Origin: Flagellimonas sp. 389
GTDB lineage: Bacteria > Bacteroidota > Bacteroidia > Flavobacteriales > Flavobacteriaceae
Assembly (NCBI RefSeq): GCF_018449435.1
Contig: NZ_JAHCMU010000001.1
Span: 247,299 to 279,298 of the forward strand
Length of the DNA: 32,000 nt
Reading direction: 5' to 3'
A model generated the notes under the pieces. That model made no database searches. It was not told the origin of the DNA and was given only the letters and a program-made list of their open reading frames with translations. Below are positions 4,227-30,591 of the stretch, one piece after another (the stretch's first letter is position 1; the number at the start of each line of letters is the position of its first letter). The translations under genes were made by a program, and so were the position numbers.

Positions 4227-4300
4227 GGTCTGGTAGTTCAGTTGGTTAGAATACCTGCCTGTCACGCAGGGGGTCGCGGGTTCGAGTCCCGTCCAGACCG
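4227..4300 (+). tRNA. tRNA-Asp (anticodon GTC), no encoded CCA
   Basis: A manual cloverleaf folds as follows: acceptor GGTCTGG/CCAGACC, D-arm GTTC..GAAT, anticodon stem CCTGC/GCAGG with loop CTGTCAC, T-arm GCGGG-TTCGAGT-CCCGT, discriminator G. Confidence 0.93.
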
Positions 4301-4303
4301 CTT
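4280..4303. repeat. attL core: 24-bp direct repeat GTTCGAGTCCCGTCCAGACCGCTT (3' 21 nt of tRNA-Asp plus 3 nt)
   Basis: An identical 24-mer recurs at 22061-22084. A tyrosine integrase gene follows each copy. Confidence 0.85.
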
Positions 4304-4420: not shown

Positions 4421-4553
4421 GCATTTCATCATCAAAAAAATGCTCACCGCCATCGCTGTAATTGACTGTTTTATAATTTATTGCAAGGATTTGTTAACAT
4501 TTATTTAAGACCCCTTTTTGTACCTTCAAAGTGTTAAATCAAAACCTTTTGCC

Positions 4554-5789
4554 ATGTTCACCACAATCAATGTCATTTTTTACCCCAAAAAAAGAAAATC
4601 AAGCAACAATAAATTAGTGCCTATTTATGCCCGTATTACATTGGACAGTAAACGTGCAGAGTTCAGTACAGGCAAACAAGTCGACCCCTTAAAGTGGGAT
4701 GCCAATACCGGTAGATTACGAGGGAAAACTCCAGAAACACTGGTATTGAACCGATTCTTCGATGCCTTGAAAGCCAAGTGTGTTTCCATCTATGACGAGT
4801 TGGTTCGCAATGAAGAATACGTGGATGCCGATGCCGTGAAGAACATCTTTTTGGGCAAGGGCCAAAAACAATATATGATCTTGGAAATATTCCAAAATCA
4901 CAATGATGAAATGGAAAGTTTGGTTGGCAAGGAATATTCCGCAGGAACACTCCAACGATATAAAGCCGCTAAATCACATATCTCCGATTACATAGTACAC
5001 AAGTACCAAAAAAAGGATTTCCCTCTTAAAAAGCTCGATTATGAGTTTATAACGGGCTTTGATTACTTTTTAAAGAGCAAAAAAAACTGCTCTCACAATA
5101 CAGCGACCAAATATATCGTCAATTTCAAGAAAATTGTTCGTATCGCATATGCCAATCAATGGATTGATCGAGACCCTTTCTTCCATTGGTCTGCAAGTTG
5201 GAAACAAAAAGAGCGGGAGTTTCTAACACACGAGGAACTGGAATCGATGCTAAAGCAAGAATTTGAATTTGAAAGATTGGACACAGTACGGGATATGTTT
5301 TTATTCTGCTGTTATACCGGACTGGCTTTTGCCGATATTGAAAAATTGACAAAGGATGATCTGGTCAAGGACATCAAAGGAAACAAATGGATCAAGACCA
5401 AAAGGAAAAAGACCAAGGTTTTGAGCAGTATTCCATTGTTGAGCATTCCAGAGGCCATAATCGATAAGTACAAAGATCATCCCAGAGTGATTGAAAAAAA
5501 GACATTGCTACCTGTATACACCAATCAGCGAACCAATTCCTATCTAAAGGAAATTGCCACAGCATGTAAAATCAAAAAGACATTGACCACACATTTGGCC
5601 AGACACACATTTGCGACGACCGTGACCCTTTCCAATGGGGTGCCGATTGAATCCGTGAGCAAAATGCTGGGGCATACCTCTTTGAAGACGACCCAGATCT
5701 ATGCCAAGGTATTGGACAGCAAAATTTCGGACGACATGGAAAAATTGAAAAATGACCCAGCCCTATTGGAGTTCGCCAAGTCCATTTGA
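4554..5789 (+). CDS. tyrosine-type site-specific integrase (Bacteroidota family), island 1
   Basis: The C-terminal catalytic block is HLARHTFATTVTLSNGVPIESVSKMLGHTSLKTTQIYAKV (HxxR ... H ... Y). The gene sits 250 bp downstream of the tRNA. ATG 4554 (MFTTINVIFYPKK) is preferred over the TTG at 4518. Confidence 0.93.
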   Translation: MFTTINVIFYPKKRKSSNNKLVPIYARITLDSKRAEFSTGKQVDPLKWDANTGRLRGKTPETLVLNRFFDALKAKCVSIYDELVRNEEYVDADAVKNIFLGKGQKQYMILEIFQNHNDEMESLVGKEYSAGTLQRYKAAKSHISDYIVHKYQKKDFPLKKLDYEFITGFDYFLKSKKNCSHNTATKYIVNFKKIVRIAYANQWIDRDPFFHWSASWKQKEREFLTHEELESMLKQEFEFERLDTVRDMFLFCCYTGLAFADIEKLTKDDLVKDIKGNKWIKTKRKKTKVLSSIPLLSIPEAIIDKYKDHPRVIEKKTLLPVYTNQRTNSYLKEIATACKIKKTLTTHLARHTFATTVTLSNGVPIESVSKMLGHTSLKTTQIYAKVLDSKISDDMEKLKNDPALLEFAKSI

Positions 5790-6205: not shown

Positions 6206-7315
6206 ATGACAGCATTTAAATGGAACTGGCAGCAAAAGGGTTGGCCCAATTTTACCTATGATGAGGCAGCTTTGAAGGACTTGGAATATCAGTTTGTGCA
6301 AACAAGTGGTGTTGCTCTTGGTTCCATAAAACATATTGATGCAGATGACAAGAATGAGCTTTTGATTGAGGTTTTGTCGGATGAGGCCCTTACTACCTCG
6401 GCCATAGAAGGGGAATATCTTGATCGCGGGAGCATACAGGAATCCATAAAAAAGAATCTAGGCCTTGAAACCGAAAGAAAAAAACTTCCACAAGCTGAAT
6501 ATGGTATATCTGAAATGATGGTCAACCTCTACCGAACATATGCAGAACCTTTGTCCCATGAGCACCTTTTTGAATGGCACCGAATGCTTACCTCCGGTAG
6601 AAGGGATCTATTGGGTATTGGAAAATATCGTTCCCATGATGACCCTATGCAAGTTGTTTCAGGGCGTTTGGATAAACCAACCGTCCATTATGAAGCTCCT
6701 CCCTCAGCACAAATGACAAAGGAAATGGAAACTTTTGTTTCTTGGTTCAATGAAATTCATAGTGAAAATAATTCCAAGATGCTTCCATTGGCCAAGTCCG
6801 GGATAGCACATTATTATTTTTTAGCTATTCATCCCTTTGAAGATGGCAATGGACGTATAGCCAGAGGACTTTCTGAAAAATCAGTGTCCATGGATTTGGG
6901 GAGATCAGCACTTATTTCATTGTCACAAACTATTGAGTCCAATAAAAAGGGTTACTATTCTGCTTTGGAAGCCCATAATTTCAAATTAGATCTCACCGAA
7001 TGGCTTGTGTACTTTGGAGAAACCATAATTGCCGCTCAACAACATACGGTAAGAACTATTGATTTTTTGATTCAAAAAGCAAGATTTTTTGACCGTTTCT
7101 CACCATTAATGAATGACCGTCAACTTAAAGTGGTACAACGTATGTTCAAAGCTGGATATACAGGTTTTAATGGTGGACTCAGCGCGGATAACTATATTAG
7201 TATTGCCCGTACTTCTGCATCAACAGCCACCCGTGACCTAAAGGATTTGGCAGACAAATCCATACTTATTAAAACAGGAGAACTCAAAGGCACCCGGTAT
7301 TCACTAAACTTATGA
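6206..7315 (+). CDS. Fic family protein (AMPylase-type fold) with an internal inhibitory motif and a C-terminal wHTH-like tail
   Basis: The Fic motif HPFEDGNGRIARGL is present. An N-terminal (S/T)xxxE(G/N) motif is present (TSAIEG). The N-terminus WNWQQKGWPNFTYD is typical of the Fic N-terminal extension. The C-terminus ARTSASTATRDLKDLADKSILIKTGELKGTRYSL is wHTH-like. Confidence 0.92.
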   Translation: MTAFKWNWQQKGWPNFTYDEAALKDLEYQFVQTSGVALGSIKHIDADDKNELLIEVLSDEALTTSAIEGEYLDRGSIQESIKKNLGLETERKKLPQAEYGISEMMVNLYRTYAEPLSHEHLFEWHRMLTSGRRDLLGIGKYRSHDDPMQVVSGRLDKPTVHYEAPPSAQMTKEMETFVSWFNEIHSENNSKMLPLAKSGIAHYYFLAIHPFEDGNGRIARGLSEKSVSMDLGRSALISLSQTIESNKKGYYSALEAHNFKLDLTEWLVYFGETIIAAQQHTVRTIDFLIQKARFFDRFSPLMNDRQLKVVQRMFKAGYTGFNGGLSADNYISIARTSASTATRDLKDLADKSILIKTGELKGTRYSLNL

Positions 7316-7824: not shown

Positions 7825-8892
7825 ATGACCAAATTACCAAAACTAAAAGCAGTTGATTTTTTTTGTTCAGGAGGAGGCATGAGTTTTGGGATGCAAGAAG
7901 CTGGCATCAAAATTCTTGCTGGAATTGATTTTGATATTAGTTGTAAAGAGACATATGAATCTAACATAACAGGAGCTGATTTTATCCATGCTGATGTTTT
8001 TGATTTAAGTGAAGACTATTTAACACAAAGACTCTCCCTAAAAAAAAATGACGATGAGCTTGTTTTAATTGGTTGTAGTCCATGCCAATTTTGGAGTATT
8101 ATCCAAACCGATAAATCCAAATCTTCAAAATCCAAAAACTTACTCAAAGAATTTAGACGTTTTGTAGAACATCTCAATCCTGGTTATGTCGTGGTTGAAA
8201 ATGTACCTGGGGTTTTAAGAAAAAAAAGGGCAAGTGGTTTGTCTGGATTTGTAAGGTTGCTTAAAGCAAATGGATATAAAGTCCACTTTGATGTTCACGA
8301 AGTAAGTGAGTACGGTGTTCCACAGCATCGTAGAAGATTTACTCTTATTGCAAATAGAGTTACCCCAATAGAAGTTGCACCTATTCCATTAAGTGGCAAT
8401 AAAGTAACGGTTAGAGATGTTTTAGGAGAACATAATGGATTTCCTAAAGTACCCCAAGGGCATAAAGATGACACACCTTTCTTACATCGCGTTGCTGGAT
8501 TAGAAAAAATAAACTTAGAAAGACTTGCTATGACCCCTAAAGATGGAGGTACTAGATTAGCATATGTTGATAATGAGGAATTGGCACCAAAATGCCATAA
8601 AGGCAAAAAAGATAGTTTTAAAGATATATATGGAAGAATGTGGTGGGATCGTCCCGCTCCTACCATTACAACTAAATTTTTTAGTTTGTCCAACGGACGA
8701 TTTGGTCATCCCGAGGAAGATAGGGCAATTTCTTTGAGAGAAGGTGCAATCCTTCAATCCTTCCCAATAGATTATGTTTTTAAAACCAACAGCATTGCCA
8801 ATACTGCCAGAATGATTGGTAACGCTGTTCCGCCGAAGTATGCAACTGCTATAGGTAAAGCGATAATTGAAAATCATTACAATGCAGTTTAG
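7825..8892 (+). CDS. DNA (cytosine-5)-methyltransferase
   Basis: C5-MTase motifs occur in the canonical order: I DFFCSGGGMSFG, IV GCSPCQFWS, VI ENVPGV, VIII QHRRRFTLIA, X GNAVPP. Target specificity cannot be read from the sequence. Confidence 0.95.
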   Translation: MTKLPKLKAVDFFCSGGGMSFGMQEAGIKILAGIDFDISCKETYESNITGADFIHADVFDLSEDYLTQRLSLKKNDDELVLIGCSPCQFWSIIQTDKSKSSKSKNLLKEFRRFVEHLNPGYVVVENVPGVLRKKRASGLSGFVRLLKANGYKVHFDVHEVSEYGVPQHRRRFTLIANRVTPIEVAPIPLSGNKVTVRDVLGEHNGFPKVPQGHKDDTPFLHRVAGLEKINLERLAMTPKDGGTRLAYVDNEELAPKCHKGKKDSFKDIYGRMWWDRPAPTITTKFFSLSNGRFGHPEEDRAISLREGAILQSFPIDYVFKTNSIANTARMIGNAVPPKYATAIGKAIIENHYNAV

Positions 8893-11785
8893 GACAAAAG
8901 CTAGAGCAGTAGACTTATTGGGTAAGGGACAAATAGCAGATTTACCCACTGCTATTACAGAATTATGGAAGAACGGTTATGATGCTTACGCTGATAACTT
9001 AAAAGCCGAATTATTTAAAGTGGGATTTCAGGGTCTCTCCCAATCCTATTTTAAAATTTCCGATGATGGAAAAGGAATGTCAAACTCCGACATTTTAGAT
9101 AAATGGCTGGTATTAGGCACAGATTCAAAATCAAGGGCCAAAATAGAGGACGAATCAGAAGAGACTTTATGGAAGTCCCCCCGTATTAAGGCTGGAGAAA
9201 AAGGAATAGGACGTTTGTCCGTTGCTTACTTAGGGAATCCAATGTTGATGCTAACTAAGAAATTGGGGCACTCAATGCAAGCTGTATATTTTGACTGGAG
9301 ATTATTGGAAAACTATAATCTATTCTTGGATGACATAGTAATCCCATTGAAACCAGTGGAAGATTTAAATTGTTTACAGGATATTTTCAAAAGCTTAAAA
9401 AGCGACTTTTTATCAAATTTTGAAAAAGAAGTAGATTTAAACAATGAGCCAATCTGGGAAGAAGGGCAAAATGAATTAAAATCAGATATCATTTTAGATA
9501 CGGAGGAGGCAGTTTTAGAAAATCCTATCCTTAATAGTATTTCATCTTTCTATAACACAAATGATTCCCATGGTACCTTTTTTTTAATCTTTAATCCCAT
9601 TTCTCAAATTGTTGAACTTTCGGAAAGGGATGAAGATAATATGGAAGACAAGAATTTTGTCACATCCAGTTTGACTGGTTTTACCAATCCTTTTTTAGAA
9701 AAGCCGCTAAAAATTAATACTTCTTTTGATATTCATAGTGAATCAGAGACCTACGATTTACTACAATCCCGAGGTGAATTTTTTAATCATTCTGATTTTA
9801 AGTTGGCCGATGTTTATATCAAAGGAGAATTTGATGGCAAAGGAACTTTTATTGGAAAGATTAGGATATTTGATAAGACAATCGACTATTCTTACACAAA
9901 TCCAAGAAAAAAAGATAAACGTTCATTTTATGGTAAAATCCCAATTGAACTTGGCTATTCACAAGGAGAAGAAAAATCTTCTACATTATCAGATGTTCAA
10001 TTCAATAAAATTTCAAATAAGGCAAAGGAATACGGTGGGTTGTATGTATATCGAGATAATTTTAGGGTATTACCATATGGTAGAGAAAATGCAGATTTCT
10101 TAAATTTTGAATTAAGAAGATCTAAAAGAGCAGGTACGTATTATTTTTCTTATCGTCGAATGTACGGCTACTTGGATATAACCCGGGAAAGAAATCCAGA
10201 TTTAAAGGATAAATCAAGTAGAGAAGGGTTAATTAACAATACAAAATATCGTGCATTTACAAGTGATGCAATTAACATGTTTGTTGCGTTAGCACAAGAC
10301 TTTTTCGCAACTAATCCAAAACAATCTGTTTTTAGGGACAAACTAAAAGAAAATCAAGATCAAAATGAAGCTTTAAAAGCAGATAAGGCGCGAGAAAAAA
10401 GTGAAAAAATTGCTTTTACACGTTCCTTGAATGAGTATCCTGAAAAACTAAAACTGCATCAAAAAAAATACGAGGAACTTCTAAATATACTTGACAAAAA
10501 ATTAAATCAAATACATTTAGGCTATTCTGAAGTCGAAAATATTTTGGAACAGCTTCAAAAATTAGACTTGGAACTCCAAAACCTGATTCCAAAAGTACCC
10601 AAAAGATACAAGCCTACTGATACTCAAACAGAGCGATTGTACAAATTTGAAAATAAGCTCAACGGCTATATTGAAAAAGTAGCTCCGAAAAGGGATGTAT
10701 TGATAGAAAAAGCACAAGATCGTCTGGAAATCAAAGATTTGCAGATTGATTTAACAAAAAGATACAATAACTATATTTCTTCTTTGGAAGAATTGCTCCA
10801 AAAACACAGCCAAAAACTCAAAGTTAAATTTAACAGCCTATTAGAGGATTATGGCGAACGGTCTAAACTACTATTAAATGTACTTGGCGAGGGCAAGAAT
10901 ACAATAATAAATCAAATAACTTCCAAAGAACAAGTCGCCCAATGCGCAAAGGAAATTGAGAAAAAATACATCAAAGTATTAGAAAAAGCCGAGAATACAT
11001 TATTCCCGTTAACAAATCATATTGAACGTTTATCCATTGACATTGATGAAGAGTTAGTTCAAGGTGCTTATAAGGCCCAGTATGACCAAATGAAATATCA
11101 GTGGGAACAAACTAGAGATACTGCACAATTAGGAATTGCGGTGGAAATCATTGATCACGAGTTTAATCAACTTTATGCAAAAATTAATACCCAATTAAAA
11201 ATACTAAGTACAAATAATGTAGTAAAATCGATTAAAGAGTTTAATTATCTAGAAACGAATTTCAAACAATTGGAGGACAAATATGCCTTGTTATCACCAT
11301 TATATCGGATATCCGGAGCTCTAGCCAAGGATGTATCCTGTCAATCTATCTACAGCTATTTATTAGAATTTTTTGAAAATCAAATTGATGAATACAACAT
11401 CATAATTGATGTCACAGATAGTTTCAAAAAGCATCATATTACTATTAAAGAACCTATTATTTATACGGTTTTCATTAACATAATAAATAATGCAATTTAT
11501 TGGATGAGAAACAAAGATTCTCGACGAATAAAATTAGATTATTGGCCAGAAACGAATGAGATACTTTTAATAAATTCTGGTGAGAAAATACCTGAATATA
11601 AACTAAAAAGAATCTTTGAATTATTTTACTCGCAACGCCCAAATGGAAGAGGGATTGGACTTTACTTGTCGAAGCAAAGTCTAAACGAAGCAGGTTATGA
11701 TATTTATGCTACAAATGATGAAAAATTTAATTCGTTGAACGGAGCTTGTTTCGTTATTAACCAAATAAACAAAGGGGATGTATAG
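8882..11785 (+). CDS. dual Bergerat-fold ATPase: N-terminal MORC/Hsp90-like GHKL module, coiled coil, C-terminal histidine-kinase core (H-box plus CA domain)
   Basis: The N-terminal part has ELWKNGYDA (ExxxNxxDA), DDGKGM (DxGxG) and GEKGIGRLS. The centre is a long heptad-rich helical region. The C-terminal part has an H-box-like AVEIIDHEFNQL (His codon 11156-11158), N-box INIINNAIYW, a degenerate G1 NSGEKIP, F-box IFELFYS and G2 GRGIGLYLSKQ. ATG 8882 overlaps the MTase stop by 11 nt. Confidence 0.85.
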   Translation: MQFRTKARAVDLLGKGQIADLPTAITELWKNGYDAYADNLKAELFKVGFQGLSQSYFKISDDGKGMSNSDILDKWLVLGTDSKSRAKIEDESEETLWKSPRIKAGEKGIGRLSVAYLGNPMLMLTKKLGHSMQAVYFDWRLLENYNLFLDDIVIPLKPVEDLNCLQDIFKSLKSDFLSNFEKEVDLNNEPIWEEGQNELKSDIILDTEEAVLENPILNSISSFYNTNDSHGTFFLIFNPISQIVELSERDEDNMEDKNFVTSSLTGFTNPFLEKPLKINTSFDIHSESETYDLLQSRGEFFNHSDFKLADVYIKGEFDGKGTFIGKIRIFDKTIDYSYTNPRKKDKRSFYGKIPIELGYSQGEEKSSTLSDVQFNKISNKAKEYGGLYVYRDNFRVLPYGRENADFLNFELRRSKRAGTYYFSYRRMYGYLDITRERNPDLKDKSSREGLINNTKYRAFTSDAINMFVALAQDFFATNPKQSVFRDKLKENQDQNEALKADKAREKSEKIAFTRSLNEYPEKLKLHQKKYEELLNILDKKLNQIHLGYSEVENILEQLQKLDLELQNLIPKVPKRYKPTDTQTERLYKFENKLNGYIEKVAPKRDVLIEKAQDRLEIKDLQIDLTKRYNNYISSLEELLQKHSQKLKVKFNSLLEDYGERSKLLLNVLGEGKNTIINQITSKEQVAQCAKEIEKKYIKVLEKAENTLFPLTNHIERLSIDIDEELVQGAYKAQYDQMKYQWEQTRDTAQLGIAVEIIDHEFNQLYAKINTQLKILSTNNVVKSIKEFNYLETNFKQLEDKYALLSPLYRISGALAKDVSCQSIYSYLLEFFENQIDEYNIIIDVTDSFKKHHITIKEPIIYTVFINIINNAIYWMRNKDSRRIKLDYWPETNEILLINSGEKIPEYKLKRIFELFYSQRPNGRGIGLYLSKQSLNEAGYDIYATNDEKFNSLNGACFVINQINKGDV

Positions 11786-13469
11786 TCAAAAAGCATATGA
11801 CATATTGGACTCATCTATAAATTCTGCCGTATTTATTGATGAAAAAGCAAAAGATTTTTTTTCAGAAACTGCCATTGATACCAATATACCAGAAGAAAAA
11901 TTATCTGTGGATCTATTCAAAACTTTTAAAGAAAATGGTAAAAACTTAGCAATACATAAGTTCGAGGTATCTACTCTAGAGAATTCAAAAACTTTAGATT
12001 ATTTATTCAATGGAAGAGATTTAATTCTTTTGGATTGGGAACTTGCTGATGTTGCAGGGCAAGAACATTCACTGAAACTGTTGAATAAAGTTATTGGCAC
12101 ACCATGCATTAATTTTTGCTGTATTTATTCAAGCTCGGCAAATTTTAATCAAATTCCACTTTTTCTAGAAGCCTATTTTTCTGGGGTGACTAAAGCAGAA
12201 TATGATTCTATTAAGGAAACATATGGACATGTTGAAATAAAGGAAGTAGAAGAAATTTGGGGCAAGAGCATTGGAGAAATAGAAGCTTTTTTTAATGAAA
12301 ACAAGATTGAAAGACAAGGTTTCCCAATCGAAAGGCTGCGAAAAAAGCCTATAGATTTGATACTGCGCCATTTATATGTTTCTCTAGTCAGTGACAAAGT
12401 TATTATTCCCGAGCAGGCACAAAAGGAATATGAAGTATTGAATACTGGAAATGATTCTTTTATTATCAATAATACTTTTGTTCTGACCTTAAAAAAAGAT
12501 GTCTCTGAGGATTCGGATTACAAAAAATTACTTAAAAGAATTTCCGATACTATTATAAAAAATAATGGCAGTTTTTTTCAGTTGTTGGGTATGGAAATGC
12601 AGTCCGTTTTTAATTCAAACGAACGATTCATCGATGATACCATTCTGAAATCTTCCACAGAAGCTCTTTTTCAATTTAGAAATCATATTCGAGACGACAA
12701 GACATTTGGCATTATTATCAAAAAACTACTAATTGAGCAAGCAACTCTTAAACTGAGAACGGCTAAACTAAAATTATTAGAAACCGAATTCTTAGACTAC
12801 AAAAGTGGAGAACTTAATGACAAAGTACCTAACCTCGAGGATCTTTTTCAGTTAAATGTATTTTATAATTCCGTTTCTGTTAAGAGTCTGCACCCAAATG
12901 ATATACCAAACTTGAATTTTGGGGATGTTTTTAAAGATTCAAATGATGAATACTACCTATGCATAACCGCCTTATGTGATTGTTACTATCCAAATAAAAT
13001 TCAGCATAATTTTTATTTTGCCAAAGGCAACGAATTTAGGGATAAAGAATTGGCTTTAAAATTGGGGGATACTGCTTTTATAAGCTTTTTACCTAATAAC
13101 AAAGTTGTCCATTGGGGAGATATCGAATATGTTAGAAAAGAAAAGATAAAAAAAGGTGATAACGAATCAGAAGATGAATTCAAAAATCGAAAATGTAATA
13201 ATGAGCTAGAAGCTTATAAAGTATTTCTTTATAAGCCTTTTTATATAAAACCTAAAGTTTACAATGTTGAAAACAATAAGTTGGAAGATAATAAGATTAG
13301 AATTTGGGATATAACAAACAAAATCACAAAACAAGGTAACGAGCACAATTTAAACTATTTTCATGTTGAATACATAACCACTCTTAGGGAAGATTATACA
13401 CAAAGAATTGCCAATCATGCTTTTGGCCACCCCTCAAGAGTAGGCGTTGATTTTGTAAAAATCAAATAG
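11778..13469 (+). CDS. receiver (REC)-like domain protein with an uncharacterised C-terminal module (candidate effector)
   Basis: The N-terminus has REC-pattern residues at CheY-like spacing: FIDE (D21/E22), DLILLDWEL (D86, codon 12033-12035), CCIYSSS (S118) and VTK (K139). I could not assign residues ~150-563. The ATG overlaps the upstream stop by 8 nt (ATGTATAG). Confidence 0.75.
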   Translation: MYSQKAYDILDSSINSAVFIDEKAKDFFSETAIDTNIPEEKLSVDLFKTFKENGKNLAIHKFEVSTLENSKTLDYLFNGRDLILLDWELADVAGQEHSLKLLNKVIGTPCINFCCIYSSSANFNQIPLFLEAYFSGVTKAEYDSIKETYGHVEIKEVEEIWGKSIGEIEAFFNENKIERQGFPIERLRKKPIDLILRHLYVSLVSDKVIIPEQAQKEYEVLNTGNDSFIINNTFVLTLKKDVSEDSDYKKLLKRISDTIIKNNGSFFQLLGMEMQSVFNSNERFIDDTILKSSTEALFQFRNHIRDDKTFGIIIKKLLIEQATLKLRTAKLKLLETEFLDYKSGELNDKVPNLEDLFQLNVFYNSVSVKSLHPNDIPNLNFGDVFKDSNDEYYLCITALCDCYYPNKIQHNFYFAKGNEFRDKELALKLGDTAFISFLPNNKVVHWGDIEYVRKEKIKKGDNESEDEFKNRKCNNELEAYKVFLYKPFYIKPKVYNVENNKLEDNKIRIWDITNKITKQGNEHNLNYFHVEYITTLREDYTQRIANHAFGHPSRVGVDFVKIK

Positions 13470-13777: not shown

Positions 13778-14125
13778 TTACTTATCTTCAAGTTCCAATA
13801 GCCTTTCGTCCAGTTTGTCCATAAAGTACATTTGGCTATCGGGAAGGATGGACAGTACCAGTTCCAATACCTGTGTGACACTGTCCTCCTTTGATGCATT
13901 CCTGTTTGCAGGTGACATCATCATCCCCTCCCCATCAAGGGCGAACACACAGACCTCCAAAAGACTTATTATCTGTGCCAACAAATGGTTATTGTCCCTG
14001 ACCTCGAAGGATACATAGTTTCCTTTAGCATCACCGGACTTTTTGTTTCCCAAAAGTCCCGAAAGATTGTTCCTGAGCTGTTGTATATCCTCTAGGGTCC
14101 TTAGCCTTTTCCTCTTTGATTTCAT
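13778..14125 (-). CDS. hypothetical protein (115 aa), paralogous to the C-terminus of the upstream 403-aa protein
   Basis: The gene starts 9 nt after the stop of the 14135-15346 gene on the same strand. Its sequence aligns with that protein's C-terminal ~115 aa (EVCVFALDGEG...VTQVLELVLSILPDSQMYFMDKLDERLL vs KVCITALEVEN...VREVLGYVLDLVPHEEMEFLDKIGKLL). Confidence 0.7.
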   Translation of the reverse strand: MKSKRKRLRTLEDIQQLRNNLSGLLGNKKSGDAKGNYVSFEVRDNNHLLAQIISLLEVCVFALDGEGMMMSPANRNASKEDSVTQVLELVLSILPDSQMYFMDKLDERLLELEDK

Positions 14126-14134
14126 ATTGTTGTT

Positions 14135-15346
14135 TTAATCGGTTGTGCTGGTCTGTTGTTCCGATAACAGTTTCCCGATCTTGTCAAGGAATTCCATTTC
14201 CTCATGCGGCACTAAGTCCAGAACGTACCCCAGTACCTCCCGTACATTATGTTCAGGCTGTTGGACAGACCTGTTTGGGAAGTTTTCCACTTCCAGTGCT
14301 GTGATACAGACCTTGATCAGGTTGGTAATCATAAACGAGGTGTCCAGATAGCCATCGGTCAACAGATCGATACTGTAGGTTCCCCTCTCCGGGCTATAGG
14401 GCTTTAAGGTGTAAAAGTGTTCCTCCTTCAGATCCTTTAGTTTTTCCAAGAGGGATTTTCCCTGTCCGTCATTTTCATTGTTCTTTTCAGGGAGGGTTTC
14501 GTCTCTGGTATCCGGCTCCTTGCCCTCGATTCGTTCCTTACAGTAAGCAAGGTGACGTTGGAAAATGGACTGCACCTCTTGGATGAATCCTATTAGTTCT
14601 GTTTGGATAGTTTTGGCCTGATTTTTTGTAATCTCAAATTCGCTGCCGTAACGCGCCACACTGTATGCATGCTCCAAGAGGAGCAGCAGTTCGTTGTTGT
14701 CCATTTTGGAGGTTTCCGAAAAGGGATGCAACGTTGGAAAGAAAGGCATGCAATAATTGATATGGCTGATAATGCTATGGGTCACCTTGCTCTTTCCGAT
14801 GCACATCTGTTCGATGAAACGGAACGCAAGCTCAAAGGCTTGATGCATGTTGAACGTGGCTATGGCATGGTTACCTTCCCCTATCAATATGTTCGCTGTG
14901 TTCGCAAAGGCTTTTATCTTTCCCATTTCAGAATCAAAATAACGGGTGGCCCTGTAGATGAGTGTCTTGTGCACTATTTCGGAATAGTCCATGATGTTCT
15001 CCCCCTCGGGATGGGCAAAGATGTTCTCCCCGAGACAGCAATGTTCCAAGAAATACAACGACCCCCTTTCAAGGCCAATTTCGGACTGGTTCTCCGTGTA
15101 GATCCTTATCCTGAAATCGGGATGCTCCTTTCCCTTTTTGGTCACAAGGGAACGGATTTCGTTGGGAAGTGGGTCGTTGTTGACATCAACAAAGAGGGTT
15201 ATGATATGATATTCAATATCGCCCTCTTTCTGTGGTCTGGACAGAAAGACCCTATCGATGGTAATGATGTTCAGGATGCCATCGAGCAAATTAGAGAGTT
15301 CTTCCGCTCTTTCAAAGTTTTCCGGTATGTTTGTGCCATGTGTCAT
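14135..15346 (-). CDS. hypothetical protein, possibly a degenerate nucleotidyltransferase-like N-terminus plus a HEPN-like helical domain
   Basis: This is a 403-aa uninterrupted ORF. The block GNHAIATFNMHQAFELAFRFIEQMCIGKSKVTHSI resembles a HEPN helix pair, but with Kx4H instead of Rx4-6H. The N-terminal region lacks the GS...DxD NTase motifs. The coding call is solid and the functional call is weak. Confidence 0.7.
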   Translation of the reverse strand: MTHGTNIPENFERAEELSNLLDGILNIITIDRVFLSRPQKEGDIEYHIITLFVDVNNDPLPNEIRSLVTKKGKEHPDFRIRIYTENQSEIGLERGSLYFLEHCCLGENIFAHPEGENIMDYSEIVHKTLIYRATRYFDSEMGKIKAFANTANILIGEGNHAIATFNMHQAFELAFRFIEQMCIGKSKVTHSIISHINYCMPFFPTLHPFSETSKMDNNELLLLLEHAYSVARYGSEFEITKNQAKTIQTELIGFIQEVQSIFQRHLAYCKERIEGKEPDTRDETLPEKNNENDGQGKSLLEKLKDLKEEHFYTLKPYSPERGTYSIDLLTDGYLDTSFMITNLIKVCITALEVENFPNRSVQQPEHNVREVLGYVLDLVPHEEMEFLDKIGKLLSEQQTSTTD

Positions 15347-15490: not shown

Positions 15491-15877
15491 ATGCAGACAA
15501 AGACCAAGAACAACCATATAGGTAGAAAAATCGGTAGGATCAGGGAACTCCGTGGGATGAAGCAGGAGACCTTGGCCGAAGAACTGGGCATCAGCCAACA
15601 GGCCGTTTCCAATATCGAGAACAGCGAGAAGGTGGATGATGCGAAACTGGAAGAGATTGCTTCAGTTTTAGGAGTGACCAAAGAAGGTATTGAGAATTTC
15701 TCGGAAGAAGCAGTATTTAATATTATCAACAATACTTTTAAAGATAATAGCTCCAACAACAATAATTATCTCTGTACTATAAATCCAATTGAAAAAATTA
15801 TTGAATTATACGAGCGTCTTGTACAGGCAGAAAAGCAAAAGGTAGCATCCTTAGAAAAACGGTTGAGCAAAGACTAA
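15491..15877 (+). CDS. XRE-family helix-turn-helix transcriptional regulator
   Basis: IGRKIGRIRELRGMKQETLAEELGISQQAVSNIENSEK is a classic Cro/C1-type HTH. The gene is divergent from the 14135-15346 gene. Confidence 0.9.
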   Translation: MQTKTKNNHIGRKIGRIRELRGMKQETLAEELGISQQAVSNIENSEKVDDAKLEEIASVLGVTKEGIENFSEEAVFNIINNTFKDNSSNNNNYLCTINPIEKIIELYERLVQAEKQKVASLEKRLSKD

Positions 15878-15891
15878 TTTTGTCTTATAGT

Positions 15892-17499
15892 TTAATTTCG
15901 CACAAAACCTAAGGGTGTTTTTTCATCAAAGTCTCCATAAACCACTGGATTCTGACTATTATTAGTGTAAATTTTAACTTTTTCCGTGACGTATTTCACG
16001 ACTTCATCAATTGTTAAAATCTTATCAGAGTTATAATCCGCTGAACCGGACAACGCTTCTATTAGATAGTAGGAAAAAATACCCCTTCTTATTCCCTTTA
16101 TCTCCGTCGAAATCTCATCTGCTTTTGATGATAAAAACAACAAACTCCCACCCTTAGAATCTTTGAAGGCTTGATAATATGAGCCAATACCATCTATATT
16201 ACTTTTTGATTGGTTTATTATACTACCAGAATGGCATGCGTCGGCGATACAAATTTTAGTCTTGGCAAGACTTTTTTCAAAGATTTTCTTTATCTCATTA
16301 TGAGAGACTAAATATCCGTTTGAGGAATCTTTGTCATATCCAACAAAACTTCCTTTAGCCCCATGTCCAGAAAAATAAAACAAAATCAAATCATTAGAAT
16401 CGGCCTTTTCAGCAATGTAATTAAGACTTTTTAAGATCTTACTTTTGGTTGCATCTTCATCAATCAGTCTAAATATTCTGTCCTTGTGAACCGCACCCCC
16501 TTCTGGACTTCTTAAAAATGAATATAAATCTTGGGCATCATCATCAGCATAATTCAAACTCCTTTGATTTTCATATTTGGCAACTCCTATTACCACAGCA
16601 TACGTATTTATATTTTCATCAGTTGAAAAATTTGACTGTGATTGATCTAGTGACATCATTCCATCAATTTCTTGACTTTCCAATTCTTGGTCAATATCAA
16701 CACTTACAGTTAGAAAGCTTTCCCCACCATATACCACTTTTGAAATCAACTTGTTATGATCATGGGAATAGCTGAAAATATCATAAGGTGAGCTAAACAT
16801 TTCAAGTTTATACTTGGATGTTTTTACACTTCTGGGAAAACCACTTGCTATCCATGTTCCATTCTCATAAAATAAAGACTTAAGCCGTTTAATACCTCCC
16901 ACATTCTTTATTGCTTGATCAATATTAACATCCAAAGAATAAGAAAAATAAGATGCTGGGAATTCATTGGACATGACCACATACCAATATCCATCAATAA
17001 AGCAAACTGAATTAATACTCATATTTTTTAAATTGGAATCTATATTTGCTCTAGGAAATATTCTTGCGCTAAACAGCTCTTGATCATAGTCTGCTCCTTT
17101 TCTTTCAAAAAGAATTCTTATTGTTTGATAATCCCTGTCGTACTCCAAATCAATTACAAAAAAACCAAGCTGTTTATTATAATTAATTGTTCTATTTAAA
17201 GCCTCGCTTTTAACCGACATCAATTTCTGTTCCCCTCTGTTGTTGTGGATATCATTATAATGCCCAACAACCCATCCTTCAGGGCCTTGCTCTATATCCC
17301 ATACAAAATATCCAGCATCACGGACATCATTCATCAACAAATCTAAATCATATCCTATTCTATAATTAGATCTGCACAAATAAGGATCGTTGCAAAACAA
17401 GCCAATCCATGGTTTGGACTGTCCATATAAGGAGGAGAAATTGGTATACAAGAACAGAAATAAGCTAAAAAAACAAATAAGTTGATTCTTTAAATACAT
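15892..17499 (-). CDS. secreted caspase-family (peptidase C14) protein with an unknown N-terminal domain
   Basis: An N-terminal signal-peptide-like segment is present (LICFFSLFLFLYTNFSSLYG/Q). The C-terminal half has the caspase His/Cys dyad context: LILFYFSGHGAKG and KICIADACHSGS, preceded by YAVVIGVAKYENQRSLNYADDDAQDL. Confidence 0.88.
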   Translation of the reverse strand: MYLKNQLICFFSLFLFLYTNFSSLYGQSKPWIGLFCNDPYLCRSNYRIGYDLDLLMNDVRDAGYFVWDIEQGPEGWVVGHYNDIHNNRGEQKLMSVKSEALNRTINYNKQLGFFVIDLEYDRDYQTIRILFERKGADYDQELFSARIFPRANIDSNLKNMSINSVCFIDGYWYVVMSNEFPASYFSYSLDVNIDQAIKNVGGIKRLKSLFYENGTWIASGFPRSVKTSKYKLEMFSSPYDIFSYSHDHNKLISKVVYGGESFLTVSVDIDQELESQEIDGMMSLDQSQSNFSTDENINTYAVVIGVAKYENQRSLNYADDDAQDLYSFLRSPEGGAVHKDRIFRLIDEDATKSKILKSLNYIAEKADSNDLILFYFSGHGAKGSFVGYDKDSSNGYLVSHNEIKKIFEKSLAKTKICIADACHSGSIINQSKSNIDGIGSYYQAFKDSKGGSLLFLSSKADEISTEIKGIRRGIFSYYLIEALSGSADYNSDKILTIDEVVKYVTEKVKIYTNNSQNPVVYGDFDEKTPLGFVRN

Positions 17500-19691: not shown

Positions 19692-19792
19692 ATGAAATAT
19701 AATAAAACTTGGGTATAGCCATCTCGAATGGAAGTACATGCCAAATCAAATTCAGCATATAAATCCCGTTGTGCACAATTTGTAGAAACTTT

Positions 19793-20593
19793 ATGCCAAC
19801 AAAAGAATTTAGGAAATCCTTCAGGGAAACAATCGATTCGCTTCACGTGTCAATATGTGAATTGACTTTGATTGAAGACACTAATTTCTATCAATTGCTT
19901 AGAGCATATTATACATTTATCCATAATCGAACCCAAACTCTATTTTTACTTGTTCAAAACGATTGTCTATGGGATGCAGATATTATTCTTAGACCTATTG
20001 CAGAATGTACTGTGAAATTTGCTTTTATTTCATCATTTGACAATCCAGAACGAAATGAAAAAGTAAGAGAATTTTGGGAAGATTTAGCTGAAATAAATAG
20101 ACTGAAACAATCCAAACAAGCTAAGCAAATAATTGAATTGACTAACATTGATTCTAAATTTTTGTCGGACATTATCTTGGAAGAAAACGAACATCGCATT
20201 TTATCTGAAAAATGGACAAAATCCAATAGACAAAGAACTGAACAACTTTGGTCTTACAACGAAATGATTAAAACTATTTCAACGAATTACGATTTTAAAG
20301 AAATACTTGGTTTAGCTAGAAATTTCACTCAATCAAGCCATCTAATTCACGCTGATGAGACAGCTTTAGGAGTGATAAATGATAGAGAACAAAGAACGGA
20401 AGAACAACGAGAAGCATTGATGAATTTTCACGAGATTAGACTGCTAAGTGATTGTGTCCAATTATATCTTTGGTTAGTAAAAGTTTGTTCTAAATTGTCT
20501 GATAAAGAATTGGACTCTGAGCTAATTAAAAAAGTAGAGGAGTTTGAAAATGGAAAAGAAATATTTAAACCTCTGAATAAAATAATTGAATAA
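19793..20593 (+). CDS. hypothetical helical protein (possibly DUF5677-like)
   Basis: An uninterrupted ORF from ATG 19793. The pattern WDADIILRPIAECTVKFAFISS...VREFWEDL...SSHLIH recalls DUF5677-type all-helical proteins, but this rests on memory only. Confidence 0.6.
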   Translation: MPTKEFRKSFRETIDSLHVSICELTLIEDTNFYQLLRAYYTFIHNRTQTLFLLVQNDCLWDADIILRPIAECTVKFAFISSFDNPERNEKVREFWEDLAEINRLKQSKQAKQIIELTNIDSKFLSDIILEENEHRILSEKWTKSNRQRTEQLWSYNEMIKTISTNYDFKEILGLARNFTQSSHLIHADETALGVINDREQRTEEQREALMNFHEIRLLSDCVQLYLWLVKVCSKLSDKELDSELIKKVEEFENGKEIFKPLNKIIE

Positions 20594-22311: not shown

Positions 22312-23556
22312 ATGCGAACTTCATCAACATTTTCAGTACTGTTTTGGGTGTACGGTAAACGTGCTGTAAACAACAAGGCAAACATCTACGTTCGACTTAC
22401 CCAAAATGGTAAGCGCGTGAACATCAGCCTTAAAAAGAAAATTGAAATTACCACTTGGGATGAGAAAACCCAAAGGGCTAATGGAACCGGTAAAGATTCA
22501 CGTATTCTCAATCTTTATTTGAACGAGGTGCAATCAAAGATTTATCGAATATACGAGGACTTCAAAAAGGCAGAAAAACCATTTACTTCCCAAATGGTCA
22601 AGGCTAGATTTTTGGGCGAAGACAAAAAGCGCTTTTCTTTTCAAAACCTTATTGATTATTACAATGAAAAAATGCAGCATAAACTGCATAAAAATACGAT
22701 GGGTCAATATAAAACTAGCCAAAGATATATGCTAGAGTATATCTTAAAAGAGTATGAGGAAACTGATATTTTTATTTCTGAACTAGATTATAGTTTTGTT
22801 ATTGGCTTTGAGGATTTTCTGCGCTCTTATGTTCCCAAACCAGGACAAAGTAAAATCGGCAACAATACAGCTATGAAACATATAAAACGTCTTCGTAGAA
22901 TGGTAACCCTTGCCTATCGAATGGAATGGTTGGATAGAGACCCTTTTATTAATTTTAAAATGAAGATTGAAAAGAAAGAGCGTGAGTTTTTGACTAGTGA
23001 AGAGTTGCAGAGTATCGAAGACTTGAACTCTTCGATTGAGCGTCTTCTGGTTGTCAAAGATTTGTTCGTTTTTAGCTGTTATACCGGTATCTCATATAGT
23101 GATATTATAGAGTTGACTAGCGACAATATTGTAATTGGTATAGATGGTAATCCGTGGATAATGGCAGATAGGATTAAAACAGGCACACCATTTAAAATTC
23201 CATTATTAAATCAAGCACAAGTCTTAGTCGATAAGTACAAAGACCACCTTAGAACCCATAATAGTAGTAACCTTCTTCCGAAACTTTCAAACCAAAAACT
23301 AAATAGCTATTTAAAGGAAATAGCTGACCTGTGTGGCATCAAAAAGAACCTAACCTTCCATATGGCAAGACATACGTTTGCAACAACTGTTACTTTAAGT
23401 AATGGTGTTCCTATCGAAACTGTTTCAAAATTGTTAGGTCATACCAAATTATCCACTACTCAAATTTATGCAAGAGTTGTAGAAAAAAAGGTTAGTGATG
23501 ATATGGCGCTTTTAAGGGATAAAATGGGTCAGCGAAAAATGGAAAGAGCTGTTTGA
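22312..23556 (+). CDS. tyrosine-type site-specific integrase (Bacteroidota family), island 2
   Basis: The catalytic block is HMARHTFATTVTLSNGVPIETVSKLLGHTKLSTTQIYARV. The N-terminus MRTSSTFSVLFWVYGKR is typical of the family. The C-terminal block is clearly homologous to the island 1 integrase. Confidence 0.93.
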   Translation: MRTSSTFSVLFWVYGKRAVNNKANIYVRLTQNGKRVNISLKKKIEITTWDEKTQRANGTGKDSRILNLYLNEVQSKIYRIYEDFKKAEKPFTSQMVKARFLGEDKKRFSFQNLIDYYNEKMQHKLHKNTMGQYKTSQRYMLEYILKEYEETDIFISELDYSFVIGFEDFLRSYVPKPGQSKIGNNTAMKHIKRLRRMVTLAYRMEWLDRDPFINFKMKIEKKEREFLTSEELQSIEDLNSSIERLLVVKDLFVFSCYTGISYSDIIELTSDNIVIGIDGNPWIMADRIKTGTPFKIPLLNQAQVLVDKYKDHLRTHNSSNLLPKLSNQKLNSYLKEIADLCGIKKNLTFHMARHTFATTVTLSNGVPIETVSKLLGHTKLSTTQIYARVVEKKVSDDMALLRDKMGQRKMERAV

Positions 23557-23728: not shown

Positions 23729-24973
23729 ATGTCAATACCTATAGTACTGGATAAATCAACATTTCAAGGCCTAAATTATGATGATATAGTTGAACTTCAT
23801 AAATATTATATTGTTAACATCACACCTCTACTGGTTTCAGAAATTCTGGGTGACCTTGCAAAAGAAGAAAAAGAAGGAAAGAAACCACCTAAAGACCAAG
23901 TTACAGATTTAGCAAAAAAAATGTTTCCATATAACGCCTATGTTAATATGGATTATAAATTGCTAGTTGAAAAATCTTTAACTGGTGAATTTACAACTGC
24001 CCATAACAGACCATTTCTAAGCGCTCAAAAATCTATAAATACTCCTACGAAAAAAGGGATGACTTTCGTTGAGACAGAAGAAGAACTATCTATAAAGCGC
24101 TGGAAAAGAGGTGAGTTCGACACTATGGATGAAATTATTGCCAATGTATGGCGAACAGAATCCAAGGATGAAGCCGTGGTGAAAACATTCAAAGAAAAAT
24201 TTGACCATCTTAAAGACATCAAAATAAGAGACCATAAACCTTCAAATGAAGAAAAGTTTTCAAGCTTGAAGGAAAGGCTGAAAGAACGCCTTTACATCGA
24301 AATTGAGCCAGTTGATACTTTAAATCTTGTGATGGAATATTTTGACATAAATCCTGATTTAAAAAATTCTATTGAATCCAGATGGAAAAATGAATCGCAT
24401 CCAGATTTACAGAGTTTGGCAGAATATGCAATCTATTGTTATGAAGTGGTCTGTCTATACTATATTGGAATTAATAATTCGTTATGCGGTGAGCGATTGA
24501 CAAATCTTTTGGATTTGAAATACTTGTTTTATGCGCCATTTGCAAGAGTGTTTAGTACCAACGACAGATTTCTAAGAAATTTGTTTTTTGCGGTAGACCC
24601 TAATGATACATTCTTTGTCACATTACCAGAATTAAAAGAAGATTTCAAAAAATTTCAAGCCTTAAATAAAGAAGGGGAAGTATTTAATGAACCACCTAAC
24701 AAAGATTCAGAAACATATCGAATTTGGGATAGTGTTTTCAATATGGAACTTACCCGAAGACTTAAACCTTCCGTAGCGGAAATAAAAAGAAAAGAAGCTG
24801 AGGTAGAAGAAATTCTCAATATTGCCGAAACCGGAAAGGAAGGTGATTTTGAGGGGGAACCAGATTTTGTTACAAAAGAAACTTTTATATCTCCAGATGA
24901 CCCTTGTCCTTGTAAAAGCGGTATTGCTTTCAAAGATTGTCACTTAGCAAAGGCTCAAAACAGGACCAACTAA
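23729..24973 (+). CDS. SEC-C metal-binding motif protein of unknown function
   Basis: The C-terminal DDPCPCKSGIAFKDCH is a SEC-C-type Cys/His knuckle. The remaining ~390 aa could not be assigned. Confidence 0.75.
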   Translation: MSIPIVLDKSTFQGLNYDDIVELHKYYIVNITPLLVSEILGDLAKEEKEGKKPPKDQVTDLAKKMFPYNAYVNMDYKLLVEKSLTGEFTTAHNRPFLSAQKSINTPTKKGMTFVETEEELSIKRWKRGEFDTMDEIIANVWRTESKDEAVVKTFKEKFDHLKDIKIRDHKPSNEEKFSSLKERLKERLYIEIEPVDTLNLVMEYFDINPDLKNSIESRWKNESHPDLQSLAEYAIYCYEVVCLYYIGINNSLCGERLTNLLDLKYLFYAPFARVFSTNDRFLRNLFFAVDPNDTFFVTLPELKEDFKKFQALNKEGEVFNEPPNKDSETYRIWDSVFNMELTRRLKPSVAEIKRKEAEVEEILNIAETGKEGDFEGEPDFVTKETFISPDDPCPCKSGIAFKDCHLAKAQNRTN

Positions 24974-29374: not shown

Positions 29375-30591
29375 AAAATATAATAATCATAGTATGTCTT
29401 TTGCTTGTTTCCTCTTTCGCGAAAGCACAAGAATTACAGTCTTACATTCAGGAAGCAGAGGCGAACAATCCAGAGATTCAAGCCTATGAATTGCGGTATA
29501 ATATTGCCCAAGAAAGGATAAATGAGGTTAACACATTGCCAAACACTACCGTTAGTGCAGGCTACTTTGTGAGCGAACCAGAAACGAGAACAGGTGCTCA
29601 GCGTGCACGATTTTCAATATCTCAAATGTTGCCTTGGTTCGGAACAATTACAGCAAGGGAAAATTATGCCAGTTCAATGGCTGAAACCGAATTTGTGGAA
29701 ATTGCTATTGCCAAACGAAAATTGGCGCTTTCCGTCGCCCAATCGTATTACACTTTGTATTCCAACAAGAAAAAACAAAATGTGCTGGACGATAATATTC
29801 AATTATTGCAGACATACGAGCGTTTGGCATTAACATCAGTCGAAGTCGGGAAAGCCTCAGCCGTAGATGTATTGCGTTTGCAAATTCGACAAAACGAACT
29901 GCAACAACAAAAGGAAGTTTTGCAAGAAGAATATATCGCAGAACAAACCGTGTTCAATAATCTGCTGAATCGTGAGGAAGATATTGTCGTTGATGTTGTT
30001 CCAGAAATGATGATTCCATCGGAAGACCCTGTTTTTAGCGATGAAGGATTGTCCCTCAATCCTGAACTGCTTAAATACGACAAGCTCTACAAATCCGTAG
30101 AGCAATCAGAACTTTTAAATCAAAAAGAAAGTGCGCCAAATCTAGGATTTGGGCTAGACTATGTTCCCGTGGCAGAGCGACCAGCGATGAACTTTAACGA
30201 TAACGGAAAGGATATAGTGATGCCAATGGTTACACTTTCCATACCCATTTTCAACAATAAGTATAATTCTGTTTCCAAGCAAAACAAGTTGCGACAACAG
30301 GAAATAGAATCTCAAAAAAATGAGCGATTAAATTCGTTGGAAACGGCTTTCGCAAAAGCAAAATCACAACGTAATCAAGCACGGATAAAATTCAATACTC
30401 AGGAAAAAAATCTTAACCAAGCCAAGAATGCTGAAGAAATTCTGATAAAGAATTACGAAACGGGGACAATAGATTTTAACGATGTACTAGACATTCAAGA
30501 ATTACAACTAAAATTTCAAATTAATCAAATCGTGTCGGTGCAAATGTACTATGTGCAATCTGCCGTCATCAATTATTTAATAAATCAATAA
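29371..30591 (+). CDS. TolC-family outer-membrane efflux protein
   Basis: The protein starts MKNIIIIVCLLLVSSFAKAQ (signal peptide). The ATG overlaps the cusA stop (ATGA). Its coiled-coil-rich repeat architecture is typical of outer-membrane factors. The ORF-track start at 29179 lies inside cusA and is rejected. Confidence 0.88.
   Translation: MKNIIIIVCLLLVSSFAKAQELQSYIQEAEANNPEIQAYELRYNIAQERINEVNTLPNTTVSAGYFVSEPETRTGAQRARFSISQMLPWFGTITARENYASSMAETEFVEIAIAKRKLALSVAQSYYTLYSNKKKQNVLDDNIQLLQTYERLALTSVEVGKASAVDVLRLQIRQNELQQQKEVLQEEYIAEQTVFNNLLNREEDIVVDVVPEMMIPSEDPVFSDEGLSLNPELLKYDKLYKSVEQSELLNQKESAPNLGFGLDYVPVAERPAMNFNDNGKDIVMPMVTLSIPIFNNKYNSVSKQNKLRQQEIESQKNERLNSLETAFAKAKSQRNQARIKFNTQEKNLNQAKNAEEILIKNYETGTIDFNDVLDIQELQLKFQINQIVSVQMYYVQSAVINYLINQ

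Follow-up and report, generated by a model that had tools for sequence, protein, structure and literature searches.

We analysed a gene at 11778..13469 (+ strand) of a 32,000-nucleotide stretch of the Flagellimonas sp. 389 genome (contig NZ_JAHCMU010000001.1, positions 247,299 to 279,298), here called the window, with positions counted from its first nucleotide. The 563-residue product carries, at its N-terminus, a receiver domain belonging to the Response_reg_2 family and a C-terminal module of about 300 residues. The gene stands third in a cassette behind those for a C-5 cytosine DNA methyltransferase and a histidine kinase with a MORC-like ATPase module. The best reading overall, which we regard as evenly poised between right and wrong, is that the protein is a phosphorelay-gated, restriction-like effector. 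Almost certainly the gene is a member of the published Response_reg_2/HEF_HK cassette. The original prediction presented the protein as an orphan discovery, which it is not: the receiver family, its HEF_HK pairing and the link to C5 methylases have been known since 2021 (PMC8011034). It is the C-terminal module that is uncharacterised. On present evidence the cassette is not a new kind of system, and it is a good and cheap experimental target.

The open reading frame (ORF) has the extent first described and, with 404 homologues at E<=1e-5, is not a chance one. The top homologue is "hypothetical protein KIM67_01165" of Flagellimonas sp. 389, a 100% match, and the others, from many Bacteroidota, are 60-74% identical end to end. 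Pfam assigns PF19192 (Response_reg_2) to residues 13-155 with 80.8 bits against a gathering cut-off of 27, and the same family is present in 120 of 120 homologues among the matches listed. No family besides PF19192 was found in the protein by Pfam, in agreement with the initial impression that an OmpR, NarL or LytTR output domain is missing. No NCBIfam or PADLOC model matches the kinase or the receiver protein. Prediction on the sequence gave no transmembrane segment in the receiver protein, and tblastn against plasmid and phage collections returned zero matches. As publicly annotated, KIM67_01165 has 554 residues, its start being placed 9 codons after the ATG at 11778 (window 11778-11805). 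The longer form probably has the correct start, because homologues keep the N-terminal MYSQKAF and this ATG shares an 8-nucleotide overlap (ATGTATAG) with the TAG that ends the upstream 972-residue kinase ORF.

PF19192 and its partner family PF19191 (HEF_HK) were both defined by Bellieny-Rabelo, Pretorius and Moleleki in 2021 (PMC8011034). The sections of that paper on domain architecture and restriction-modification (R-M) systems, together with its discussion, place the two genes side by side in 91.6% of 644 regions. By their account the Asp, the acidic pair, the Thr and the Lys of the receiver are conserved, as is the His of the kinase; C5 methylases often lie upstream, Vsr and HNH_2 occur as neighbours, and the HEF_HK kinase is akin to paraMORC ATPases. 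Our cassette shares the families, the adjacency, the upstream C5 methylase and the occasional Vsr or HNH_2 gene, with no family-level difference from the pair as those sections present it. In them the receiver and the DHp domain are the only parts defined, and the C-terminal module of about 300 residues is not discussed.

Judged by conservation and by its predicted structure, the N-terminus of the protein is a genuine receiver, and its pocket, made of D21, D/E22, D86, T/S118 and K240, is intact. Conservation was assessed over 108 sequences, the window protein and 107 representatives of 50%-identity clusters, which are 21-61% identical to the query. D21, D86 and W87 are each found in 100% of these sequences, D81 in 99% and an Asp or Glu at position 22 in 94%. 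Position 118 is Thr or Ser in 100% (T in 98, S in 10). The original prediction had read a CheY-like pocket from the strings FIDE (D21/E22), DLILLDWEL (D86), IYSSS (S118) and VTK (K139), all of which lie at the residues it named. D21, E22, D86 and S118 bear this out at 94-100%. The proposed lysine does not: K139 is kept in 26% of the sequences (K, E, I and others) versus 99% for K240, which is the true pocket Lys.

The full-length AlphaFold model of the receiver protein has a predicted local distance difference test (pLDDT) score of 75. Its receiver elements are beta1 (16-21), alpha1 (38-52), beta2 (56-61), beta3 (82-86), alpha3 (94-107), beta4 (113-118) and alpha4 (120-134), followed by a helical insertion of high pLDDT (139-203), a small hairpin, beta5 (233-239) and alpha5 (248-261). 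By this secondary structure each pocket residue stands at the end of its own strand, with K240 directly after beta5. Aligned by hhalign, the family profile matches a canonical receiver profile with a probability of 94% (E 1e-7), D86 falling on CheY D57 and S118 on T87; with the insertion (137-225) cut out, K240 pairs with CheY K109. The canonical profile was built from six sequences (CheY, Spo0F, PhoB, OmpR, NarL and NtrC) and may contain small errors. The PF19192 match and this alignment uphold the REC fold first proposed for the N-terminus. Foldseek of the full-length model against receiver structures gave weak matches (E 0.24-0.39, probability 0.8-0.9). The domain is very probably a functional phospho-acceptor.

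Like CheY/PhoB-type receivers (PF00072), the domain is arranged as (beta-alpha)5 and has their five pocket residues, and its beta3 string DLILLDW is identical to the PhoB sequence in the canonical profile. Unlike them, it is not matched by the PF00072 model and has a long beta1-alpha1 loop as well as a helical insertion between alpha4 and beta5. The output domain of the protein is also unrelated to the OmpR, NarL, LytTR and NtrC types. The receiver is thus interrupted at its alpha4-beta5-alpha5 face by a variable helical insertion of about 90 residues (137-225; 12186..12452, +), seen as helices by AlphaFold and containing the non-conserved K139. With a mean pairwise identity of 20%, it is the most variable stretch of the receiver protein among 55 cassettes that are complete by strict length and order criteria. 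Conservation, hhalign and the AlphaFold model place the rest of the receiver on either side: beta1 to alpha4 (13-136; 11814..12185, +) with D21/E22, D81, D86 (codon 12033-12035) and S118, and beta5 to alpha5 (226-262; 12453..12563, +) with K240 (codon 12495-12497). The conserved alpha1 residues S43, L46 and F50 may form a common kinase-docking surface.

The first cassette gene (7825..8892, +) encodes the C-5 cytosine DNA methyltransferase (PF00145, E 3.5e-48). Its motifs I (FxGxG), IV (PCQ), VI (ENV), VIII (QxRxR) and X (GNAVPP) are intact and its PDB relatives are DNMT1 and M.HaeIII. The second gene (8867..11785, +) encodes a 972-residue protein in which a MORC-like GHKL ATPase is fused to a histidine-kinase core. 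Pfam recognises HATPase_c_3 (PF13589) at residues 28-149, the HEF_HK DHp domain (PF19191, 71.3 bits) at 754-816 and HATPase_c (PF02518) at 863-964, and the CA domain resembles solved histidine kinases. Pfam finds no domain at residues 150-750 and no effector domain in the kinase beyond the ATPase modules. To judge by its sequence, the part from about 480 to 750, between the ATPase module and DHp, is probably a coiled coil. H764, in the motif DHEF, and the ATP-binding motifs of both GHKL modules are invariant in 55 of 55 cassettes. Given the invariant H764 and D86, a working His-Asp relay would be the simplest reading of the two proteins. The ORFs overlap at both cassette junctions, the kinase ORF running over the end of the 355-residue methylase ORF, suggesting that the three genes are translationally coupled.

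We surveyed the cassette across genomes using a 12-sequence alignment and one genome per species, and the ORFs of the resulting 68 loci were called and clustered. The order methylase (~357 residues), kinase (~967 residues) and receiver gene (~550 residues) on one strand is found in about 60 of the 68 loci. A HEF_HK kinase gene stands beside the receiver gene in 65, and a C5 methylase is present in 64. The flanks vary by locus. Vsr is encoded beside 18 of the 68 cassettes and an HNH_2 endonuclease beside 13, while a McrBC-like AAA and DUF2357/PDDEXK_7 pair occurs in nine loci and NOV_C in eight. No further nuclease gene is conserved over the 68 loci, and about 80% of the cassettes are without an adjacent HNH or other conserved nuclease. 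PADLOC was run on 150 genes lying no more than two places away from a cassette, and many of them matched: HNH (12), Vsr (9), PDC-S36 (5), PD-T4-1 (5) and TmtA (5), along with REase_II, PDC-M26A/M33, mad3/mad8, NucC and AriA. The cassettes sit in defence islands. Because of this setting and the lack of another conserved nuclease, the C-terminal module of the receiver protein is the most plausible effector, as had been thought from the start for the case that the operon is a defence system. The methylase being obligatory, and no other nuclease being conserved, a DNA-directed activity should therefore lie in the kinase or the receiver protein.

The HNH_2 genes found beside some cassettes code for 257-330 residues and are mostly directly 3' of the receiver gene on either strand (for example L004:9694-10677, L022:9708-10481 and 11 more). 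They could be an optional fourth component or mere island neighbours. Two or three cassette copies occur in the genome of Niabella hibiscisoli (loci L020 and L047, on two contigs, and also L064). In these copies the kinase and receiver genes are split into short ORFs, which are either pseudogenes or the result of long-read frameshift errors.

Going by its predicted structure, the C-terminal part of about 300 residues is a family-specific module in two parts, a helical bundle and a beta-rich domain. The model of residues 262-563, made by AlphaFold with a diverse 40-sequence alignment, has a pLDDT of 88.3 and a predicted template-modelling score of 0.84. The helical part (263-372; 12564..12893, +) has helices at 263-279, 294-304, 307-328, 336-345 and 353-364 and carries an LLGLEM motif and N360. 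Strands are predicted at 383-386, 392-395, 411-419, 435-438, 442-446, 492-496, 506-517 and 520-536 in the beta-rich part (373-563; 12894..13466, +), which also holds helices at 423-433 and 538-548 and a variable helix at 465-484 within a variable loop/helix region (448-490). The original prediction had counted about 420 unassigned residues after the receiver. Some 300 of them (263-563) stand as the module, and the others are the receiver insertion (137-225) and the beta5/alpha5 segment (226-262).

Conservation in the module is high at a small number of positions. In the helical part N360 is kept in 91% of the 108 sequences. In the beta-rich part the figures are 98% for D383, 94% for C395, 93% for T397, 98% for C400, 97% for D401, 96% for C402, 98% for D/E431, 97% for S/T436 and 100% for W446, and further on 100% for Q542, 98% for R543, 100% for N546, 94% for R554 and 99% for G556. 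All 55 complete cassettes keep D383, C395, C400-D401-C402 (12975-12983, +), D/E431, W446, Q542-R543-x2-N546 (13401-13415, +) and R554, and S436 is kept in 53 (N in the other two). These key residues persist despite a mean identity of 40% between the receiver proteins. The segments NFGDVF...CDCYYP (380-405) and EDYTQRIANHAF...VGVDF (538-559), quoted when the module was first remarked on, are found at those residues. The acidic, His or Cys clusters that were looked for exist as conserved Asp and Cys but not as His.

The three acidic positions D383, D401 and D/E431 and the three Cys lie close together in sequence around one beta-hairpin, with D383 opening one hairpin strand and C400-D401-C402 following the other in the model topology. 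Since they are placed on the two strands of one hairpin, D383 and C400-D401-C402 are probably neighbours in space. The module is confined to this family as far as the searches reach. It matches just 214 clusters in a representative library of 1.84 billion proteins, where the full-length matches (~510-610 residues) align from residue ~220-260 on and a dozen shorter ones that were inspected have the same architecture in collinear form, cut short at the N-terminus. Among the sequences inspected, short ones included, none joins the module to another N-terminus. A Pfam scan of 40 diverse members found no family common to the module, and in the PDB neither the full-family sequence profile nor that of the C-terminal module found anything below E 0.5.

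In the mechanism that we propose, the methylase would mark host DNA and the MORC-like ATPase module, which occupies the position of a kinase sensor, would engage unmodified incoming DNA. The coiled coil would relay this engagement to the DHp/CA core, H764 would be phosphorylated, and the phosphate would then pass to D86. The phosphorylated receiver would release or assemble the C-terminal module, and the freed module would act as a restriction-like effector attacking DNA. It would most likely be a metal-dependent nuclease, with the Asp and Cys residues binding metal and the Q-R-x2-N helix contacting DNA. A nuclease is suggested by the three acidic positions with the Cys triad, by the Q-R-x2-N helix with R554 and by the lack of any other nuclease.

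The steps of this proposal differ in strength. We lean slightly towards the C-terminal module being the effector of a methylation-linked defence. That it is a nuclease is a tentative suggestion, drawn from features other than homology. Its fullest form is doubtful: a new enzymatic fold whose Asp and Cys residues (D383, C395, C400-D401-C402, D/E431) make up a metal centre, most likely a nuclease, switched by Asp phosphorylation, in the first R-M-type system with restriction gated by a His-Asp relay from a MORC-like DNA-sensing ATPase, the effector gene being swapped in a phage arms race.

Several observations weigh against a phosphorelay-gated effector of this kind. The module has no conserved His in the 108 sequences (H547 40%, H551 42%) and no canonical (D/E)xK motif, and its beta-rich domain is not basic (isoelectric point 7.4). 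The Cys triad could be structural or redox-related instead of catalytic, and the clustering of the conserved residues in space depends on the topology of a model. PHROGs, PADLOC and NCBIfam hold no family for the module, and neither there nor in Pfam did a nuclease, TIR, PNP or transmembrane family match it, as the original prediction had already gathered by eye. The structure search that it called for, made with the confident module model, found nothing at E<=1e-3 in PDB and BFVD. By hhalign the module reached a probability of at most 1.3% (<=1.3%) with profiles of Vsr, HNH_2, PDDEXK_7, NOV_C and MazF/Kid and with a single CcdB sequence, the first four profiles being alignments of genes neighbouring the cassettes. 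Of the three cassette genes, the receiver gene evolves fastest and is swapped most often, which would fit a sensor as well as an effector. We found no experimental work on the Response_reg_2/HEF_HK family in the literature, and the sections of the family paper named above propose regulation of neighbouring R-M systems (PMC8011034).

Three leads on the module were dropped. Kinship with the nucleases encoded next to the cassettes (Vsr, HNH_2, PDDEXK_7 and NOV_C) was given up on the hhalign probabilities, and H547 and H551 as catalytic His on their low conservation. The best Foldseek matches in PDB and BFVD, all non-significant, are MazF/PemK toxins (E 0.27-0.3, low template-modelling scores), and a superficial GD(V/I)(F/Y) likeness pointed the same way. 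A MazF/PemK or CcdB fold was not accepted because the hhalign probability against MazF/Kid is 0.1%.

The same conserved residues could serve a module that is not catalytic. In that case the C-terminal part would be a DNA-recognition or adaptor module that, once phosphorylated, loads or directs the MORC-like ATPase to clamp or compact unmodified DNA, or that recruits a nuclease encoded elsewhere such as HNH_2. Q542-R543-x2-N546 on a predicted helix and R554 are typical of base and phosphate contacts, the module shows no nuclease signature, and MORC and paraMORC ATPases have been proposed to manipulate DNA superstructure in R-M systems (PMC2292703). HNH_2 is adjacent in 13 of the 68 loci and is the commonest PADLOC match among the neighbours; however, about 80% of cassettes lack an adjacent HNH or other conserved nuclease. 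D383, D401, D/E431 and the three Cys, at 94-98%, look more like a metal or active site than a simple adaptor, and the beta-rich domain is not basic. We consider an adaptor unlikely.

A catalytic module need not act on DNA. An abortive-infection effector directed at RNA, nucleotides or protein would leave the methylase to serve DNA sensing by the MORC-like kinase only. Detocs shows that effectors fused to a receiver can deplete ATP instead of cutting DNA, and the module has no canonical DNA-nuclease motif. The top Foldseek matches, being endoribonuclease toxins, would also suit such an effector, but their E values and template-modelling scores and the hhalign result speak against that kinship. 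The strict linkage to a methylase is simplest if DNA is both sensed and attacked. A target other than DNA is decidedly unlikely in our estimate.

The variability of the cassette bears on whether the receiver protein executes the response or senses the phage. Mean pairwise identity over the 55 cassettes is 67% for the methylase, 59% for the kinase and 40% for the receiver protein. Within the kinase it is 81% for the N-terminal GHKL module, 46% for residues 151-300 and 48% for the coiled coil (481-750). The receiver core has 46% and the beta-rich domain about 50%, and the methylase target-recognition region has a mean of 59.5% and a lowest value of 40%. Kinases are at least 80% identical in 27 locus pairs, and in 15 of these the receiver proteins are at most 50% identical. 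Loci L024 (6833-8560) and L041 (7986-9599) are the clearest example, with Vsr, methylase and kinase 90-100% identical and DNA about 90-95% identical up to the junction of the kinase and receiver genes, exactly where identity collapses. Their receiver proteins are 33-35% identical throughout, receiver domain included. Sequence comparison thus indicates that the receiver-effector gene is exchanged as a whole unit between near-identical cassettes, and widely differing receiver alleles apparently function with a single type of kinase. Such whole-gene swaps are a natural experiment on two-component partner specificity.

A component that clashes directly with phage factors is expected to behave in this way, be it an effector hit by inhibitors or a sensor. 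The receiver protein could accordingly be a sensor or decoy touched by phage proteins, with the MORC-like kinase as executor and phosphotransfer as a brake or timer. The low identity of the receiver gene, the divergent receiver proteins behind similar kinases, the sharp recombination break at the gene junction and the position of the most variable segment, a surface insertion in the receiver, all agree with this. The constellation conserved in the C-terminal module nevertheless looks catalytic, no effector domain can be recognised in the kinase besides the ATPase modules, and effectors under attack by phage inhibitors evolve fast too. A sensor or decoy is highly improbable in our view.

Equally improbable is a regulatory two-component pair, as proposed in 2021, that controls the methylase or neighbouring R-M genes through an unusual DNA-binding transcription-factor domain: receiver proteins usually act on transcription and the sections of the family paper cited above suggest signalling control of R-M systems (PMC8011034), but Pfam finds no helix-turn-helix or other DNA-binding family in 41 diverse members, the module has 300 residues with conserved Asp and Cys clusters, the flanking R-M and defence genes change by locus around a constant three-gene core, the "sensor" of the kinase is a MORC-type ATPase acting on DNA, and swaps of the receiver gene occur between cassettes that are about 95% identical in the methylase and the upstream region.

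The phosphorelay-gated effector has its closest parallel in Detocs, which consists of the kinase DtcA, the buffer receiver DtcB and the receiver-PNP effector DtcC. Its defence against phage has been shown experimentally and depends on the effector site as well as on the His and the Asp (10.1101/2023.01.24.525353). Like Detocs, the cassette, known from its sequence, pairs a cytoplasmic histidine kinase with a receiver that bears a candidate effector in place of a DNA-binding output. Unlike Detocs, it has neither a stand-alone buffer receiver nor a PNP domain, and it does not belong to Detocs. As sensor its kinase has a MORC-like GHKL ATPase where that of Detocs has TPR repeats, and the obligatory methylase has no counterpart in the Detocs operon as described (DtcA, DtcB, DtcC). 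No PADLOC 2.0.0 model matches the large proteins of the cassette, it being uncertain whether models for Detocs are included. Should the cassette serve in defence, it would bring together two ideas studied separately until now, self-marking by DNA methylation and His-Asp relay control of a toxic effector. To our knowledge, such relay control has so far been demonstrated for Detocs only.

The kinase shares its N-terminal HATPase_c_3 domain with the MORC and paraMORC ATPases of Iyer, Abhiman and Aravind (2008, PMC2292703), and cytosine methylase, Vsr and HNH genes are neighbours in both cases. The paraMORC systems described there use helicases or fused C-terminal domains (RE-fold, TIR or others); they have no His-Asp relay, and a receiver is not mentioned. 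Our cassette differs from these in joining the ATPase to a DHp/CA core and in having its candidate effector on a receiver protein of its own. If the proposed mechanism is true, a bacterial MORC-like ATPase gains a biochemical role as a sensor of DNA state. Like type II R-M systems with a Dcm-type methylase and Vsr, the cassette has a complete C5 methylase, Vsr beside 18 of the 68 loci, a mobile island setting and a logic of self-marking. Unlike them, it has no restriction endonuclease recognisable by Pfam or PADLOC, and two large proteins that form a predicted phosphorelay stand in its place. MADS was considered as a parent system and dropped, the preprint describing no kinase or receiver component. 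A V. cholerae WASA paper that mentions paraMORC is unrelated, as it concerns a GHKL-Shedu fusion. The module itself is a compact target, with a confident model, few residues to mutate and no relative found in PDB or Pfam, and could turn out to be an effector or nuclease domain not catalogued before.

Within the window, the cassette is part of a low-G+C (guanine plus cytosine) island of about 20 kb (4227-25508, 30-36% G+C), a typical mobile defence island. ARAGORN places a tRNA-Asp gene at its left edge (4227-4301, +), followed by a tyrosine integrase (4518-5789, +; Pfam Phage_integrase, Phage_int_SAM_5 and Arm-DNA-bind_5) and a Fic/DUF4172 gene (6206-7315). Beyond the cassette, Pfam identifies genes for a HEPN protein (14135-15346, -), an HTH_3 protein (15491-15877), a caspase-like Peptidase_C14 protein (15892-17499, -), a DUF5677 protein (19769-20593), a second tyrosine integrase (22312-23556) and a SEC-C-motif protein (23729-24973). 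Core genes resume with a 1248-residue AcrB-type pump (25628-29374). The G+C content rises to 45% over 13778-15346 (-), which covers the HEPN gene and a small ORF downstream, compared with 30-36% over the cassette, which points to separate acquisition of this module, perhaps a HEPN toxin together with a partner unmatched in Pfam. The AcrB-type ORF overlaps the start of an outer-membrane factor ORF (29179-30591) by about 200 nucleotides, and the TTG start of the second ORF is probably over-extended.

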